Source: Shigella phage SHFML-26
Reading direction: 5' to 3' (one strand)
Sequence record: KX130862
DNA: 64,000 nt
Shown here: one piece after another, positions 40,877 to 47,237 of the stretch
How positions within the stretch are numbered: position 1 is the first letter of the stretch
Layout: every line of letters starts with the position of its first letter
Made by a program: the position numbers and the translations under genes
The notes under the pieces: generated by a model
Seen by the model: the letters and a program-made list of their open reading frames with translations, nothing else
Told to the model about the DNA's origin: nothing
Databases searched by the model: none

Positions 40877-41051
40877 GGAGTTTAATTTCCTTAGCAACTG
40901 AACTAAATACAGCACGGTCACAAATCATGTGTTTATGTAACTTAAGTATAAGATAATAAACATCATAACCATTTACGTAAGTAACGCGAACAGCATTACC
41001 ATTAATAAGATAATACTGTCCCTTTTTAATTTCTTTATCAATCATAACCAT
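40869..41051 (-). CDS. hypothetical protein
   Basis: ORF track; early promoter at 41082-41110. Confidence 0.4.
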   Translation of the reverse strand: MVMIDKEIKKGQYYLINGNAVRVTYVNGYDVYYLILKLHKHMICDRAVFSSVAKEIKLHG

Positions 41052-41177
41052 ATCAATTCCTCAAAGGCAATTCATGTGTTAATAATACCACAGTTTGAGC
41101 TCGTTGTAAACAACTTTGTGAAAATTATTTTAGGGAATGATAAGAAAGGAACGATAGCTTAGAATGGTAATATACAG

Positions 41178-41206
41178 AATGTGAGAAAGAAAGGCCCAGA
41201 GGGCCC
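41178..41206 (-). terminator. intrinsic terminator after nrdH
   Basis: GGGCCCUCUGGGCC then UUUCUUUCU. Confidence 0.5.
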
Positions 41207-41209
41207 GTC

Positions 41210-41533
41210 TTAATCTTCTATGATATCTCTATCATATCCAAGTGAAATGAGAGTTTCTTTGAAGTGTTTAATGTTCTTTTGTCTAGAATCATTAATGAAA
41301 ATGACTGGATAACGAATGTTAAGAGATGTGAATCCAGCGCGTTTAGCAAGAGATACAATCAGCGGACGATCATACTCAATCTTACCGTTATTTGTAAGAA
41401 CTTTATAGAAAGTAAAAGGAGCATTGAGCTCCTTTAGAAGTTTTGTAACTGATTGACATCCAGGACAACGACCTACTTCTTCGGGGATGCCATAGATTTC
41501 AATCTTATTCTTTAAGTTCGAGTTTTGTTCCAC
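41210..41533 (-). CDS. nrdH: glutaredoxin-like protein NrdH (CPGC active site)
   Basis: CPGC motif; start placed at GTG 41531-41533 behind AAGGAA because upstream ORF overlaps first 52 codons. Confidence 0.55.
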   Translation of the reverse strand: MEQNSNLKNKIEIYGIPEEVGRCPGCQSVTKLLKELNAPFTFYKVLTNNGKIEYDRPLIVSLAKRAGFTSLNIRYPVIFINDSRQKNIKHFKETLISLGYDRDIIED

Positions 41534-41816
41534 GAGAAATAATTCCTTGATAAGCCCAGTATGGCGGGTTAACAGAATCCTCACCAGAGTTTTCTTCAGG
41601 AAAATAAACCTGGATAACGAAGCCGGATTCATCAAAGGTGAAATAAGTAGTAGGCAGTTCACCTAACAAATCGGCACGAGCGTTGATTTCTTCGAGGTCT
41701 TGTTCACGTCCAGCCCAGAAGCTTGGGTTCAGACTACATTCATAGAAATAATAGTCATTACCGAACATATCAAAACCATTCCAACTCTCTACTACATACC
41801 GCTCAAAACTAATCAT
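41505..41816 (-). CDS. hypothetical protein
   Basis: ORF track. Confidence 0.45.
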   Translation of the reverse strand: MISFERYVVESWNGFDMFGNDYYFYECSLNPSFWAGREQDLEEINARADLLGELPTTYFTFDESGFVIQVYFPEENSGEDSVNPPYWAYQGIISRGTKLELKE

Positions 41817-41818
41817 AA

Positions 41819-42034
41819 TTAAGCCTTTTTATCAAGAACAGCATTCAGCTTGTTAGTAATTTTATCCAGACGCTCATTAAACTCACTAGAAGATAAGCCC
41901 TTTTCTGGAGAAATTAAACTAATCACGAAAAATATAGCAATAAAAGGAATAAGGAAAATAGCTCCAACTGCCATAAACAGAAAGAATGTTACAGTTGTAA
42001 GAAAATCAGCTAAACCTTTACGAAATTTATACAT
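41819..42034 (-). CDS. small membrane protein
   Basis: ORF track; one hydrophobic segment. Confidence 0.45.
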   Translation of the reverse strand: MYKFRKGLADFLTTVTFFLFMAVGAIFLIPFIAIFFVISLISPEKGLSSSEFNERLDKITNKLNAVLDKKA

Positions 42035-42149
42035 ATTTTACCCTTAATTAATTAACCAAGCATTGATAAGCACTAAACTATATTGGGAATAAAATTCTGG
42101 ACCAAAATGAAAAATCATATCATTTATAGTATCCATAATGTAATTCAGT

Positions 42150-42620
42150 TTAATCATGTTTCCACACCCCATCGGTATTTGACCAAAGTCGCTGATTATC
42201 TGATCCTCGCCACAGCTTTTTAGTCGGAAGATTTTTCTCATACTTCCCATCAATAATAACATCAACATATTTAAGCATTTCTAGCTGTTTAATATCTTCA
42301 AACTTATATCCTGTCCACAACCAAATGCTTTTATTGGGATAAAGATTTTTAATAGTTTGAACCACAGAGTGAATCACGTCTCTGTTATCAGGATAAAGAG
42401 GGTCTCCTCCAGTTATAGTTAATCCTTCTATATAATCATTATTCAAACATTCAATCAATTGTTCTAGTGTTTCACCGGTGAATGGAATACCATTTCTAGC
42501 ATTCCATGTTGATTTATTATAACACCCTTCACATTTATGCAAACAACCTGTAACGAAAAGAACAGTTCTGCAACCAGGGCCATTCACAAAGCAGCACGGG
42601 TATATTCTGTCATAATTCAT
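42150..42620 (-). CDS. nrdG: anaerobic ribonucleotide reductase activating protein NrdG (radical SAM)
   Basis: Cys-rich radical-SAM-like cluster; start moved to MNYDRIY (ATGA overlap with upstream gene). Confidence 0.8.
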   Translation of the reverse strand: MNYDRIYPCCFVNGPGCRTVLFVTGCLHKCEGCYNKSTWNARNGIPFTGETLEQLIECLNNDYIEGLTITGGDPLYPDNRDVIHSVVQTIKNLYPNKSIWLWTGYKFEDIKQLEMLKYVDVIIDGKYEKNLPTKKLWRGSDNQRLWSNTDGVWKHD

Positions 42621-43447
42621 AATAATATCCAATTTTTCCAAGCTTCATCAGTAGAATTACAGCGTTTTAGTATAAGATGTCTAGAAACTTTTATGGCATT
42701 TGAGCACTTTTTAATTGAATCATATTTAATACCGTCAACTGAAACGGTTTTGCTAGTTGGAGAAATTTTTCCATACATTGGATTTTTTGAACCAACTTGA
42801 AGTCCTTTTAAAGCTTTTGAAAGCTTTTGTCTAGATTCCAATGACATGGGAGAATTCTTTTTACCTTCAATAATTCGCTTGCGATGAAGTTCGCGTTCTT
42901 CTTCACTCAAAGAATTGTAATATTTTTTAACACCGTTTGATATAGATAATTTATCTTTCTCAGACCGCTCTCCAGCTAATTTACTTCTAACATCTTTTCG
43001 CTTCATAGCTATGCTTACGGCTTTATTTAAATTTGCTTGATGCTCTGGCGTACGTTTATATTTCTTTAAAGCACGTGAAATAGCTATTTTAGTTTCTTCT
43101 GTTCTCTTTTTACCTTTATTTGCTAAACTATTTTTGTGGCGATGTTCAAGTGTCTGTTCATAGGCAGTTCCACCTTTTCCACCAGGTTTAATATTATATG
43201 TATTTTCTTTTAGACAATACTCTTCAGTTACAAGTTCAGCTTCTTTATCATACATTTGCTTTTCATTATCAAAAACATATAAAATTTCTTTATAAAAATT
43301 TTTTCTACCATATTTTAATAAAGCAGCACGAATCAATGTTCCTGATCCCATATAACCGTCATTTATATTATCGGTGCTATGCGCACCGATATATTCCTTT
43401 GAATTAATTATATTTGTTATTTTATAAATTATATAATACCTATGCAT
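42617..43447 (-). CDS. free-standing GIY-YIG homing endonuclease
   Basis: N-terminal GIY-YIG motifs (YYIIYKITN...EYIGAHS...YMGSG); overlaps nrdG start and nrdD end. Confidence 0.7.
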   Translation of the reverse strand: MHRYYIIYKITNIINSKEYIGAHSTDNINDGYMGSGTLIRAALLKYGRKNFYKEILYVFDNEKQMYDKEAELVTEEYCLKENTYNIKPGGKGGTAYEQTLEHRHKNSLANKGKKRTEETKIAISRALKKYKRTPEHQANLNKAVSIAMKRKDVRSKLAGERSEKDKLSISNGVKKYYNSLSEEERELHRKRIIEGKKNSPMSLESRQKLSKALKGLQVGSKNPMYGKISPTSKTVSVDGIKYDSIKKCSNAIKVSRHLILKRCNSTDEAWKNWILL

Positions 43448-45257
43448 GTTTTACTCGTTTTACCATTTCTTTCATTTTACCTAAATTCCATGGAACAACG
43501 CTAGGAGTTCCAAGATATCCGCATGTTCTTCTTATTGTATTCATCTTTTTAGGATCAGTTTCTCCACAAATAGAACAAACAAATCCGTTTTCAGTAGGAG
43601 TCATTTCATGGGTACTTCCGCATGTAAAACACTTATCTACTGGCATGTTAACACCAAAATAATCTAAATGTTGTACAGCATAATCCCATACAGCCTCAAG
43701 ACCTTTTAGGTTATTTTTCATATCAGGAAGTTCAACATAAGAAATGTGACCACCTGTCGCAATGAAATGATATGGCGCTTCACGAGAAATTTTTTCAAAC
43801 GGAGTAATATTTTCTTCTACTGAAACGTGGAAACTATTAGTGTACCAGCCTTTATCGGTAACATCTTTTACACTTCCATATTTTTCTGTATCAAGTTTAC
43901 AGAAGCGATAACAAAGGTTTTCAGCAGGAGTCGAATATAAACTAAAAGCAAATCCAGTTCTTTCAGTCCACTGTTTAAGATGAGCATTCATTTTAGTTAA
44001 AATTTCTTGTCCAATATCACGACCGACAAGAATATTCAATTCGTGAATACCAATGTATCCTAGGGACACTGAACTTCTACCATTTTTAAATAACTCAATT
44101 ATATCGTCATCAGGTTTAAGACGAACCCCGAATGCACCTTCTTGGTAAAGAATAGGAGCAACAGTCGCTTTAACTCCTTTTAAGGAACTAATTCTACACA
44201 TCAAAGCTTCAAAACATAAATCCATTCGTTCATTGAATAATTCAACAAATTTCTGTTCATTGAACTGTGTTCCAATATAAGAATCTAACGCGATGCGAGG
44301 AAGATTCAGTGTTACAACACCAAGATTATTACGTCCATCAAGAATTTCATTACCAGTCGAATCTTTCCATACGCTCAAGAAACTACGGCAACCCATTGGA
44401 GAAACAGGAATAGATGAACCAGTGATAGCTTTATTGTTCTTAGCTGAAATAATATCAGGATACATTCTTTTGCTTGCACACTCTAGAGCAAGCTGCTTAA
44501 TATCATAGTTCGGATCGTCTTTATAAAGATTAACACCTTCTTCAACAAACATAACAAGCTTAGGGAAAATAGGAGTTATCCCATCACGACCAAGACCTTT
44601 AATACGATTTTTCAGAATTGCTTTCTGAATCATTCGTTCAGTCCAGTCAGTTCCTGTACCAAATGTAATTGTTACAAAAGGAGTCTGTCCGTTTGAACTA
44701 AAGAGAGTATTTACTTCATATTCATAAGCTTGGAATGCATCGTATACGTCTTTTTCTGTTTTAGATTGAGCATAATTTAACGCATCAGCGATTTGCCATT
44801 TTTCTGCATCCTCAATATGTTTTGCATAGGTGCGTTTAACATAAGGAGAAAGTACTTTATCTACATTAGCAAAAGTCGTTCCGCCGTATTGGTGAGAAGC
44901 AACCTGTGCAGTAATTTGTGCCATAATTGCAGTAGCAACGCCAATTGATTTAGGAGTTTCAATCTGCGCATTACCTAGCTTAAATCCGTTCTCAAGCATT
45001 CCTTTTAAATCTACTAAACAGCAATTAGTAAATGGAAGAGCAGGGGAATAATCAATATCGTGGAAATGAATAATTCCGCTTTCATGCGCTTTCATAATAA
45101 AAGACGGGACCATATTTTTGGCAATGTGTTTAGACACAATACCAGCCATAAGGTCCCGTTGAGTTGGAAAAACACGAGAATCTTTATTAGCATTCTCGTT
45201 TAAAAGGTCTTTATTAGTTTTATGAATCAATCCTTCAATTTCTTTTTCAATTGTCAT
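43440..45257 (-). CDS. nrdD: anaerobic ribonucleoside-triphosphate reductase NrdD (intronless)
   Basis: 605 aa; C-terminal glycyl-radical region and Cys-rich zinc site; continuous ORF. Confidence 0.9.
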   Translation of the reverse strand: MTIEKEIEGLIHKTNKDLLNENANKDSRVFPTQRDLMAGIVSKHIAKNMVPSFIMKAHESGIIHFHDIDYSPALPFTNCCLVDLKGMLENGFKLGNAQIETPKSIGVATAIMAQITAQVASHQYGGTTFANVDKVLSPYVKRTYAKHIEDAEKWQIADALNYAQSKTEKDVYDAFQAYEYEVNTLFSSNGQTPFVTITFGTGTDWTERMIQKAILKNRIKGLGRDGITPIFPKLVMFVEEGVNLYKDDPNYDIKQLALECASKRMYPDIISAKNNKAITGSSIPVSPMGCRSFLSVWKDSTGNEILDGRNNLGVVTLNLPRIALDSYIGTQFNEQKFVELFNERMDLCFEALMCRISSLKGVKATVAPILYQEGAFGVRLKPDDDIIELFKNGRSSVSLGYIGIHELNILVGRDIGQEILTKMNAHLKQWTERTGFAFSLYSTPAENLCYRFCKLDTEKYGSVKDVTDKGWYTNSFHVSVEENITPFEKISREAPYHFIATGGHISYVELPDMKNNLKGLEAVWDYAVQHLDYFGVNMPVDKCFTCGSTHEMTPTENGFVCSICGETDPKKMNTIRRTCGYLGTPSVVPWNLGKMKEMVKRVKHA

Positions 45258-45727
45258 TTTAAACTCTTTCTAAGCTGCTTCTTAAATGAAGCTATTAACT
45301 GTGTTTTGGTGTCAGATTCATTATATTCAAATCCTCTTTGAAGCATCTCGGCCATCATTTCCTCTTTTCCTAAACGAGAAAATTCCTTTGATTTATCTCC
45401 AACAAAGTTAGGGTGAATATTATTTTGGGTGTAATCGGATTTTAAATAAGTAAGTAAATTTTCTAACCATTCAAGATAATCAACACCTTGACCCTTTAAG
45501 CCAGAACGATTAAATTTGTGCTTCATTTGACCTTCTGCAGCATTGCAGAGATTACAAAGCAATCCACGTACCTTTCCTGCTTTTGGTCCATTTAATTCAT
45601 GGTCATGATCGAGGTGATTAGATTGAACATCAGGATTTAATTCTCGTTGGCAAATTAAGCATTTACCGTTTTGTGCATCATAAAATTTCTGTTTTTCTTC
45701 TTTGTATAATTTGCCAGTCAATAACAT
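45254..45727 (-). CDS. 49: endonuclease VII (gene 49), Holliday junction resolvase
   Basis: 157 aa; CxxC...H-N-H-like zinc motif; recognised sequence. Confidence 0.85.
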   Translation of the reverse strand: MLLTGKLYKEEKQKFYDAQNGKCLICQRELNPDVQSNHLDHDHELNGPKAGKVRGLLCNLCNAAEGQMKHKFNRSGLKGQGVDYLEWLENLLTYLKSDYTQNNIHPNFVGDKSKEFSRLGKEEMMAEMLQRGFEYNESDTKTQLIASFKKQLRKSLK

Positions 45728-45767
45728 AATAAAACCCTTACCTTAAATAGATAAGGGTATTTATTAT

Positions 45768-45944
45768 TTAAGTATTGTAAAACATTCGATGCAATCGTTT
45801 ATACTGTCGAATCATCTTTTTAGTAGGACGAGAATAGGTTCCTACGCAAGTGGTCATATGAGGGTCCGTAGAATGTCCTTTAATAAAAAGTTTCCAAACC
45901 TTACCGCCATTTAACTTTTCAGTATAAACCAATTCGGTTTTCAT
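45768..45944 (-). CDS. small protein (58 aa) sharing C-terminus MIRQYKRLH.MFYNT with next gene
   Basis: Own translation; below ORF-track cutoff. Confidence 0.3.
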   Translation of the reverse strand: MKTELVYTEKLNGGKVWKLFIKGHSTDPHMTTCVGTYSRPTKKMIRQYKRLHRMFYNT

Positions 45945-45980
45945 TAAAATGCCTTGTCAGAAAAAGAATTTTGAGTTTTT

Positions 45981-46484
45981 TCAAGTATTATAAAACATTT
46001 GATGCAATCGCTTATATTGCCGAATCATTTGGTCAGAAAAAGAATTTTGTGTTTCAAGCCATTCAATGTACTCTGCGGCAGCTTGCATTAAATTTCCTTC
46101 ATAACCATCAATATCTTTTTTCAATGCCACTTTAGCTAATGCATATGAAATACGTTCACCTTGAAAAGCGGCTTTAGGCTTCTGAGCATCTTGGCTAGTT
46201 CTCTCTACAACTTCTTCAATTTCGCCATTTTCAACGGATTCAGTATTCCACAAGCACCAATACGTAATTGGCTTATCATAGATGTTAATAATCTTTCCGT
46301 CGGAAAGTTCAATTTCAATAATTCCAGTATCAGGCTCTATATCATCTTCACATTCTTTTGTAAGTTCACGAACTTTAAAGACAGTACCTGCACTAAGTTC
46401 CGGCCAGTAATTACATAGCCCTGTATCAACACGATTAATTCTAAACCACTTATCTACTGTAATCATGTCCCATCTCCATATCAA
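45981..46484 (-). CDS. hypothetical protein (pin position)
   Basis: 167-aa ORF after gene 49; assignment by position only. Confidence 0.4.
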   Translation of the reverse strand: MIWRWDMITVDKWFRINRVDTGLCNYWPELSAGTVFKVRELTKECEDDIEPDTGIIEIELSDGKIINIYDKPITYWCLWNTESVENGEIEEVVERTSQDAQKPKAAFQGERISYALAKVALKKDIDGYEGNLMQAAAEYIEWLETQNSFSDQMIRQYKRLHQMFYNT

Positions 46485-46588
46485 TTAAGTCATTTATCGT
46501 TGGTTCATTATATACTGTTTCTTCATCAGTGTAAACCGGTTCTTCCGGCTCTGGCTCTACAGTTTCCCATCTAGCCGCCCACCAGGGT

Positions 46589-46798
46589 TTAACCCCGAAG
46601 CTTATTAAGTTCTTCATAATCAATCCAGGATTCTAGTCCTGATGGCAAATCAGATTCAATTTCCCAAAGAAGCTCTTCAATTTTCTGAAGACGATCTAGT
46701 TCTTCAGCTGGAATAGTAACCATTGATGGAGTTCTTGATACACTAATATCGTAAATCATATTTACCCCAGTTTGACCATGCAATCGCCGTATTTCCAC
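46589..46798 (-). CDS. hypothetical protein
   Basis: ORF track. Confidence 0.4.
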   Translation of the reverse strand: MEIRRLHGQTGVNMIYDISVSRTPSMVTIPAEELDRLQKIEELLWEIESDLPSGLESWIDYEELNKLRG

Positions 46799-46977
46799 TT
46801 AGAAATAGACTTTTCGCCATTAGAATAATAAACTTCGAGTTTAGCACGGTTATTTTTAATTTGAATAACCTTGGCTGTCATTAAAGTTCCATACCCATAG
46901 TAAACTGCAACTTCATCACCTACATATACCGCGCTTCCGCGGTAATCATGGATATAATCAGTTCCTTCGAGCATCAT
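46762..46977 (-). CDS. hypothetical protein
   Basis: ORF track. Confidence 0.4.
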   Translation of the reverse strand: MMLEGTDYIHDYRGSAVYVGDEVAVYYGYGTLMTAKVIQIKNNRAKLEVYYSNGEKSISKWKYGDCMVKLG

Positions 46978-47237
46978 TTAAAGTATTCCCGCAATTGGTC
47001 AAATCCACCAATATGACTTCCATCAGGAGCAAATACCTGAGGCATTGTTAAGCCGATTTGAGTATCACGACCTAGTTTAGTCAGAAGCTCAGCGATTTTC
47101 TCATCATCAAAAACACCTTTTTCCGGCATAATGTTGATAAATTCAAACGGCTGTTTCTTCACGGTCAAAAGACGTTTTGCATTATCGCAATACACGCATT
47201 TGTGGATGTTGCTATCATAACCATATACTTTAAACAT
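46974..47237 (-). CDS. nrdC: glutaredoxin/thioredoxin NrdC (CVYC)
   Basis: 87 aa, CVYC active site. Confidence 0.8.
   Translation of the reverse strand: MFKVYGYDSNIHKCVYCDNAKRLLTVKKQPFEFINIMPEKGVFDDEKIAELLTKLGRDTQIGLTMPQVFAPDGSHIGGFDQLREYFK

Follow-up and report, generated by a model that had tools for sequence, protein, structure and literature searches.

The open reading frame (ORF) at positions 42617-43447, minus strand, of the window (the whole 64,000-nt stretch of Shigella phage SHFML-26, sequence record KX130862, that was analyzed) is very probably segH, which T-even phages (Tequatrovirus) carry as a selfish, free-standing homing endonuclease gene and which occupies the junction of nrdD and nrdG as a promoter-less cassette. 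We put the probability of this reading at about 0.93, and there was no evidence against the identification. The presence of segH at the nrdD/nrdG junction is already known and named, since GenBank records carry the gene under that name and it was reportedly described in 2005. The three genes that make up the locus are as follows.

42617-43447, minus strand: segH coding sequence, a free-standing GIY-YIG homing endonuclease gene, 276 aa, with an ATG start
43440-45257, minus strand: nrdD, intronless, 605 aa, a continuous ORF that matches Pfam NRDD over positions 1-562 of 562
42150-42620, minus strand: nrdG, radical-SAM activase, 156 aa (Fer4_12, E=1.4e-48), with its start embedded in the segH stop (ATGA)

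The initial annotation had placed a free-standing ORF between nrdG and nrdD with short overlaps at both ends, and this arrangement was confirmed. The coding-strand sequence aaacATGCATAGgtat holds the segH ATG (43447-43445) and the nrdD TAG (43442-43440), which gives an overlap of 8 nt, and the coding-strand sequence ttattATGAatt holds the segH TGA (42619-42617) and the nrdG ATG (42620-42618), which gives an overlap of 4 nt. The sequence directly upstream of the nrdG start is supplied by segH. Counted from its ATG, nrdG is 471 nt long, as annotated in T6, T4 and fPS-65; the automatic ORF call reaches back to an upstream TTG. The nrdD ORF includes the glycyl-radical domain (Pfam). The gene order of T4 (gene 55, nrdH, nrdG, nrdD, gene 49, pin) is kept in the window, which is a segment of a T-even (Tequatrovirus) genome whose closest database records are ~96.8% identical over 14 kb.

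The ORF is 831 nt (276 aa) long, equal to reference segH, and its DNA was 99.0, 98.9, and 98.2% identical to the segH genes of LZ2 (AY262139.2), RB3 (AY262138.2), and T6 (AY262137.2), respectively. The nrdD-segH-nrdG layout is common to these three records and the window. The translated protein was 99% identical to LZ2 SegH, 97% identical to T6 SegH and 90% identical to the copy in Salmonella phage KM16; two substitutions separate it from LZ2 SegH, with Y52 for N and Y57 for H in the window allele. When the ORF was used as a query, 71 phage records matched at 92-99% nucleotide identity and 462 protein homologues were found. These matches, together with dN/dS values of 0.08-0.22, argue that the ORF is not a chance reading frame. 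The ORF also matched PHROG 314, 'homing endonuclease' (E=2.4e-60). The proposal of a Seg-like, free-standing GIY-YIG homing gene beside an intronless nrdD thus corresponds to a gene that already has a name. segH was reportedly first described, between nrdD and nrdG in some T4-like phages, by Sandegren, Nord, and Sjöberg in Nucleic Acids Res 2005, 33:6203, and the LZ2, RB3, and T6 segH GenBank records are said to accompany that paper. SegH is said there to have endonuclease activity and to cleave close to its own gene, reportedly in both segH-plus and segH-minus DNA, and reportedly homes in mixed infections.

The naming of this gene varies among records. The genome annotations of T6 (MH550421), PP01, F2, KM16, and SYGD1 use the name segH. 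The same gene is labeled segD in the genome records of RB3 and RB5-10, a label in conflict with the RB3 record that names the gene segH at the nrdD/nrdG locus; segD of T4 is located between genes 23 and 24 (PMC2988022 Table 1). Several data sources give SegH relatives the name 'group I intron endonuclease'. The gene should be annotated as segH and neither as segD (RB3 and RB5-10 records) nor as a group I intron endonuclease. segH lies between nrdD and nrdG, where T4 has mobC (PMC2988022 Table 1; bioRxiv 10.1101/2022.08.31.505936), and the 2005 SegH paper is cited in PMC2988022 and elsewhere.

Structure modeling and profile searches showed a predicted modular architecture for SegH, in which a GIY-YIG nuclease at the N-terminus is joined by a helical NUMOD3 linker to an I-TevI-type DNA-binding domain at the C-terminus. 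The segments of the gene that encode these parts are listed below.

43169-43447, minus strand: N-terminal GIY-YIG catalytic domain, residues 1-93, with 'IIY' at 6-8, 'YIG' at 19-21, E69 and N85
42764-43153, minus strand: helical linker and NUMOD3-type repeat region, residues 99-228 (NUMOD3 match, predicted helices)
42629-42772, minus strand: C-terminal I-TevI-type DNA-binding domain, residues 226-273 (Foldseek match and a sub-cutoff Pfam match)

The AlphaFold model of SegH, which was built on 39 homologues, had a mean pLDDT of 84 and a pLDDT of 95-98 across residues 1-90. Strands were predicted at residues 4-12, 18-25, and 51-59 and helices at residues 37-46 and 62-72 (pLDDT above 95), so that the modeled domain has the alpha/beta fold with a three-stranded sheet expected of a GIY-YIG protein. 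Foldseek comparison with the PDB gave the I-TevI catalytic domain (1mk0) as the best match (probability 1.00, TM 0.64), and the only meaningful PDB matches of the model were the catalytic and DNA-binding domains of I-TevI. Alignment of the SegH family with I-TevI residues 1-97 by hhalign had a probability of 89.7% (E=1.8e-6). The 39-sequence family profile found I-TevI alone, and weakly (E=0.11), among PDB sequences, and a phmmer search of PDB sequences with the single SegH sequence returned only noise; the assignment was settled by Foldseek and hhalign.

Residues Y8 (GIY), Y19 and G21 (YIG), E69, Y84, and N85 were invariant in 121 of 121 SegH homologues. The isoleucine of the second motif is also fixed, making Y19-I20-G21 invariant in the family, and H23, T25, D30, Y32, and S35 were invariant or nearly so among the 121 members. 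SegH Y8 aligned with I-TevI Y6 and Y19-I20-G21 with I-TevI Y17-V-G19; in the HMMER alignment to 1mk0/1ln0, N85 fell on I-TevI N90, and E69 lay at most one residue from E75. The invariance of Y8, Y19-I20-G21, E69, and N85 and the match of the fold to the I-TevI catalytic domain support the N-terminal GIY-YIG motifs recognized in the initial annotation. That annotation had named the absence of catalytic residues on alignment as the observation that would count against it; the residues were present, and only the equivalent of Arg27 could not be aligned. The window SegH had no match to the general Pfam GIY-YIG model (PF01541) and scored 15.3 bits against PF19835 (SegE_GIY-YIG), below the cutoff of 25. 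Several SegH homologues carry precomputed matches to PF01541 or PF19835. The Pfam miss reflects the limited sensitivity of these models for the SegH clade and is no argument against the fold.

The hhalign alignment left a 9-residue gap in SegH opposite I-TevI residues 23-31, the helix that carries R27 and H31, and the canonical GIY-YIG arginine (I-TevI R27) had no aligned equivalent in the SegH clade. The SegH model has a loop at residues 26-36 and no helix there. Of the 121 homologues, 120 had a lysine or arginine at position 37 or 40; the window SegH has T37 and R40 and the KM16 copy has K37 and Q40. This pattern suggests that a basic residue at 37 or 40 may stand in for the canonical arginine. 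The SegH/SegD-like clade may be a reduced form of the domain that draws its positive charge from a movable lysine or arginine in the first turn of the next helix, the position of which is swapped between the window and KM16 proteins.

Pfam NUMOD3 matched residues 200-228 (42764-42850) at 31.9 bits, above the cutoff of 20.4, and AlphaFold predicted helices at residues 100-213. The linker region was 30% identical to I-TevII over 128 aa (E=1e-5). The Pfam I-TevI_DNA-bd model scored 21.1 bits, below its cutoff of 27, and Foldseek matched the SegH C-terminus to 1i3j, the I-TevI DNA-binding domain on its substrate, with a probability of 0.98. Residues 235-274 of the model consist of two short strands followed by three helices.

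The comparison of the nrdG-nrdD junction across phages, recommended as a check in the initial annotation, was done with a 701-nt query in which the two flanks were joined with segH removed. The junction was present in 878 records and was empty in most of them (a 705-nt span for the 701-nt query); in empty-site genomes the two genes overlap each other through ATGA. The occupants of the junction were segH (71 records), T4-type mobC (32 records), and a longer PST-type mob gene (32 records); Klebsiella phages have a small, unrelated ORF there. Moonvirus KM16 and the window were 92% identical in segH and 96% identical in the nrdD tail, and only 72-77% identical in the remaining nrdD, nrdG, and gene 49. 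These identities show a transfer of segH between genera, which lends indirect support to the reported endonuclease activity and homing, and the patchy distribution of the gene is consistent with mobility. The dN/dS values of the window segH against four other copies ranged from 0.08 to 0.22 and were alike in all three domains, which shows that the gene is under purifying selection. Decayed and replaced forms were also detected. A frameshift of +4 nt disrupts the segH of sutha near codon 30, the segH of PD112 has lost residues 47-242 in frame so that residues 1-46 are fused to 243-276, and SHFML-11 carries a derivative of the segH locus in which mobC has replaced segH.

Two stretches of the neighboring genes differ from the ancestral sequence in genomes with segH.

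43440-43512, minus strand: segH-linked alternative 3' end of nrdD, the last 22 codons, with TPSVVPWNLGKMKEMVKRVKHA replacing NPNERGFNLGKNKEIMHRVKHQ, each read to the stop codon
42588-42620, minus strand: first 11 codons of nrdG in their segH-linked form, which read MNYDRIYPCCF where the other form has MNYDRFYPCDF (alignment)

The alternative nrdD tail starts directly after the glycyl-radical motif RRTCGYLG and was 96-100% identical in all segH-bearing or segH-remnant genomes examined, including Moonvirus KM16. The ancestral tail, NPNERGFNLGKNKEIMHRVKHQ, is common to Tequatrovirus, Mosigvirus, Moonvirus, and Klebsiella phages. The segH-type tail had no match in the empty-site or mobC genomes compared, with SHFML-11 as an exception, and it was present in 79 phage records versus 71 for segH. 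A strict linkage of tail and segH was ruled out by SHFML-11, in which the tail lies beside mobC; the linkage is strong and not absolute. The SHFML-11 sequence passes from the segH-type tail into the ancestral 'GGTTAAACACCA' and then into a mobC that is 99% identical to that of T4. The join falls exactly at ATGCATAGG, 9 nt common to both tail alleles, which looks like the crossover point at which mobC replaced segH. In segH genomes this 9-mer, ATGCATAGG, encodes the Met-His-Arg with which segH starts, and in ancestral genomes it encodes a Met-His-Arg of nrdD; most SegH homologues start two residues later than the window SegH. The shared 9-mer and the later start in most homologues suggest that the segH start, ATG-CAT-AGG, was captured from the ancestral nrdD codons.

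The nrdG 5' variant (PCCF) was present in T6, EC128, KM16, PD112, and sutha and was also detected beside the PST-type mob gene; HY03 has segH with the ancestral, empty-type nrdG 5' end (PCDF). The mobile unit may extend beyond the ORF as a cassette that also replaces the final 22 codons of nrdD, an essential gene. The linked tail is most simply explained as a donor flank that was co-converted, and the recoded tail may represent a variant of the target site. If SegH cuts its own genome, as the abstract of the 2005 paper reportedly states, the tail would not be a simple immunity allele. The joint proposal that the SegH clade is a reduced GIY-YIG variant without the arginine helix and that the mobile unit is a cassette that includes the nrdD tail is a tentative one, which we regard as possible and rather unlikely to hold in full.

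Three other explanations for the gene were considered. The segH of the window could be a decaying or inactive relic, fixed in its lineage and no longer cutting DNA, as decayed copies do occur at the site in sutha and PD112 and the window allele departs from LZ2 SegH at Y52 and Y57. However, the window ORF is full length with all invariant family residues intact, its dN/dS values are 0.08-0.22, Y52 is common to the KM16 copy, and tyrosine is frequent at position 57 in the family (11/39), which makes a relic very improbable. A gene kept mainly for the benefit of the phage, through exclusion of competitor markers, local recombination or amplification, or DNA-binding regulation of nrdD and nrdG, is a less remote explanation, although still an improbable one. 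Purifying selection on all three domains is compatible with such a benefit, as are the autorepressor activity of I-TevI (PMC2988022), the report that T6 SegB aids immune evasion by amplifying anti-defence loci (PMC13096335), and the position of segH directly before the nrdG start. Against this, segH is dispensable since most Tequatrovirus genomes have no gene at the junction and their nrdD and nrdG genes overlap directly; moreover, a selfish element would account for the patchy occurrence of segH, its transfer between genera, and its decay products.

An origin of segH as an intron-encoded endonuclease, or as the remnant of a group I intron of nrdD, is suggested by its 30% identity to the intron-encoded I-TevII over 128 aa and by the 'group I intron endonuclease' label given to its relatives in several data sources. 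An Rfam scan detected no group I intron in 41000-47000, even at E<=1, but recognized the intron in the T4 nrdD region used as a positive control at 105 bits (Intron_gpI). The segH ORF overlaps two complete genes, and the position that corresponds to the T4 I-TevII intron site in nrdD, between window positions 44719 and 44722, is ~1.27 kb upstream of segH. The scan with its T4 control refutes an intron origin, which we regard as almost certainly wrong. The same scan and the full NRDD coverage substantiated the earlier description of nrdD as a continuous, 605-aa ORF without a group I intron. The accompanying statement that the site carries an intron endonuclease in T4 was imprecise; the T4 junction holds mobC, a free-standing HNH gene, and the I-TevII intron is ~1.27 kb away inside nrdD. 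EC128 carries both the nrdD intron and segH, and the FL23 and FL44 records have the same pattern of a two-piece nrdD and two endonucleases, so segH and the nrdD intron are independent of one another.

The region was also searched for expression signals. No late promoter (TATAAATA) was found in the 42-46 kb region (four were found in the whole window), and a sigma-70 scan detected no sigma-70-like site upstream of segH and fewer sites than in shuffled sequences. The absence of a segH promoter fits the promoter-less cassettes formed by other seg and mob genes (PMC2988022). No hairpin that could sequester the ribosome-binding site was found at the segH start, where the predicted fold was no better than that of shuffles (z=0.32). 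segH would be transcribed by read-through from nrdD. The 8-nt overlap, together with a weak Shine-Dalgarno sequence (GAG, 6 nt upstream), may couple a low level of SegH translation to termination of nrdD.

In a mixed infection, SegH would cut both DNA strands of the co-infecting phage near the nrdD/nrdG junction, and recombinational repair on the segH genome as template would copy segH and its flanks into the recipient (intronless homing with co-conversion). We infer these steps from the reported behavior of SegH and of other Seg enzymes. The breaks that GIY-YIG Seg enzymes introduce into the genomes of co-infecting relatives are double-stranded and leave 2-nt, 3' extensions, and the repair that follows copies the endonuclease gene and its flanks, resulting in intronless homing and marker exclusion (PMC2988022).

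As a discovery, the gene has small value since the name segH already exists for the gene at this junction, many T-even genome annotations include it, and the 2005 paper reportedly characterized it experimentally. The 4-nt nrdD/nrdG junction is a compact example of homing-endonuclease turnover, with empty, segH, T4-type mobC, PST-type mob, and decayed or recombinant forms, and each endonuclease gene at the junction goes together with divergence in a stretch of a neighboring essential gene. The missing arginine helix, the recoded nrdD tail with the captured start codon, and the SHFML-11 recombinant may be new leads; the loss of the arginine helix or the nrdD-tail cassette may already be in the 2005 paper.

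The closest known systems are the segH genes of LZ2, RB3, and T6, which have the same insertion site, length, and overlaps as the window segH, but the genome that surrounds the window gene is a different mosaic. T4 MobC is likewise encoded by a free-standing cassette that overlaps its neighbors at the same nrdG/nrdD junction (PMC2988022 Table 1), but the protein, an HNH endonuclease, is unrelated to SegH (BLASTP E=0.5), and the window SegH had no Pfam HNH match. A DNA-binding domain shared by SegH and MobC-type proteins was sought as a possible explanation of their common insertion site and was rejected (BLASTP E=0.5 for T4 MobC and E=0.088 for the PST 'MobC'). The two cassettes also differ in their flanks: mobC opens with a duplicate of the 5' codons of nrdG and leaves the ancestral nrdD tail in place, whereas the alternative tail comes with segH. 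In addition, the nrdG allele that accompanies T4-type mobC is divergent, with 77% identity to the nrdG of the window.

I-TevI of the T4 td intron (PDB 1mk0, 1ln0, 1i3j) has the same arrangement of a GIY-YIG domain, flexible linker, and C-terminal helix-turn-helix as SegH. Unlike SegH, which is free-standing, I-TevI is intron-encoded, and the catalytic domains are only ~22-25% identical. In contrast to I-TevI, NUMOD3-type helices make up the SegH linker, and SegH gave no Zn-finger match. I-TevII of the T4 nrdD intron is a GIY-YIG and NUMOD protein tied to nrdD, as is SegH, and is distantly related to it; I-TevII, however, is encoded by an intron (group I, 1.27 kb upstream) and is absent from the window. 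Other T4 endonuclease genes have a hairpin that sequesters the ribosome-binding site, whereas segH does not. SegA-G of T4 are also free-standing GIY-YIG genes located between conserved genes, often promoter-less and spreading with co-conversion of their flanks (PMC2988022), but their insertion sites and targets differ from those of SegH.

The presence of segH, the free-standing GIY-YIG endonuclease gene between nrdD and nrdG, was associated with a distinct 3' end of nrdD, which begins directly after the glycyl-radical motif:

43440-43512, minus strand, alternative nrdD 3' tail of 22 codons, TPSVVPWNLGKMKEMVKRVKHA

The alternative tail accompanied segH throughout the compared loci (L001, L003, and L012-L015 vs. 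L002, L007-L011, L016, and L017). The ancestral tail, NPNERGFNLGKNKEIMHRVKHQ, is kept across several genera. In the Moonvirus KM16, a Salmonella phage with a segH copy, the alternative tail was 96% identical to that of the window even though the flanks were only 72-77% identical.

The junction of Shigella phage SHFML-11 combines the two nrdD alleles. At L018 1440-1600, a segH-type nrdD tail is joined to the last 12 nt of the ancestral tail, GGTTAAACACCA, and the adjoining gene is a mobC 99% identical to the free-standing HNH gene of that name in T4. Comparison with window positions 43439-43447 showed that the join falls at a 9-nt sequence common to both tail alleles, ATGCATAGG, with GGTTAAACACCA standing immediately 3' of it. 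This 9-mer forms the start of segH (MHR) and, in the ancestral tail, the nrdD codons for MHR. The arrangement of these sequences looks like a replacement of segH by mobC through recombination at the 9-nt microhomology.

The mobC-type genes opened with duplicated 5' codons of nrdG, MNYDRIY in T4 mobC (L002 3480-3620) and MNYDRFYPCDFVN in the longer PST-type "mobC" reading frame (L007 1420-1560), which places their insertion within the nrdG start, with the start regenerated downstream. The T4-type mobC was linked to a divergent nrdG allele, which was 77% identical to that of the window compared with 93-97% for other Tequatrovirus.

The intronless nrdD of the window encodes the same peptide as T4, QAYEYEVNTLFS, at 44680-44765, around the position of the I-TevII intron (44719/44722). 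At this site, the two nrdD genes differed by seven synonymous substitutions, located between the codon spanning the intron insertion point and approximately 25 nt downstream. These differences look like an exon polymorphism linked to the intron, or like a variant of the homing site.

Decayed copies of segH were detected in two phages. The copy in sutha (L015 993-1827) carries a +4-nt frameshift near codon 30, and that in PD112 (L014 2380-2760) is reduced to an in-frame fusion of residues 1-46 and 243-276 only. In PD112, the 5' part of nrdD was only 85.5% identical, and a different homing endonuclease gene adjoins nrdD upstream, in the place of gene 49 in the window.

The interval between gene 49 and pin contains a further duplication:

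45768-45944, minus strand, 58-aa reading frame between gene 49 and pin, C-terminus MIRQYKRLHRMFYNT
45981-46484, minus strand, pin, C-terminus MIRQYKRLHQMFYNT

The end of the 58-aa product, MIRQYKRLHRMFYNT, nearly matches the 15 C-terminal residues of pin, MIRQYKRLHQMFYNT, so that the 3' end of pin is duplicated around an insert of approximately 210 nt. This insert was found in some relatives (ES12, YUEEL01) and was missing from many, T6 and AR1 included.

Naming of segH varied among database records. The junction gene is labeled "segD" in the RB3 and RB5-RB10 records (KM606994-KM606999 and NC_025419); a 2005-era RB3 record (AY262138.2), however, gives this sequence the name segH. Elsewhere, the gene appears as "group I intron endonuclease" or as "hypothetical protein." Several records, including HY03, start the gene at an internal methionine (735 nt) despite an intact 831-nt reading frame, and the 831-nt frame of SYGD1, likewise annotated as 735 nt from an internal methionine, is apparently intact.

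Within segH, an inverted repeat at 43369-43391 runs across the YIGAHSTD codons; its 9-bp arms pair perfectly and enclose a loop of 5 nt, TATCGGTGC TATGC GCACCGATA. It was flagged on the non-coding strand by a terminator scan and may be due to chance. In the hhalign alignment, a 9-residue gap within the region of SegH residues 24-40 (43328-43378) stands opposite the stretch containing R27 of I-TevI, the T4 td intron endonuclease, and the structural model has a loop there. Lysine or arginine occurred at position 37 or 40 in 120 of the 121 homologues; the two positions are swapped between SegH of the window (T37/R40) and the KM16 copy (K37/Q40). Nothing in the SegH/SegD-like clade aligns with I-TevI R27, the canonical arginine of GIY-YIG enzymes.
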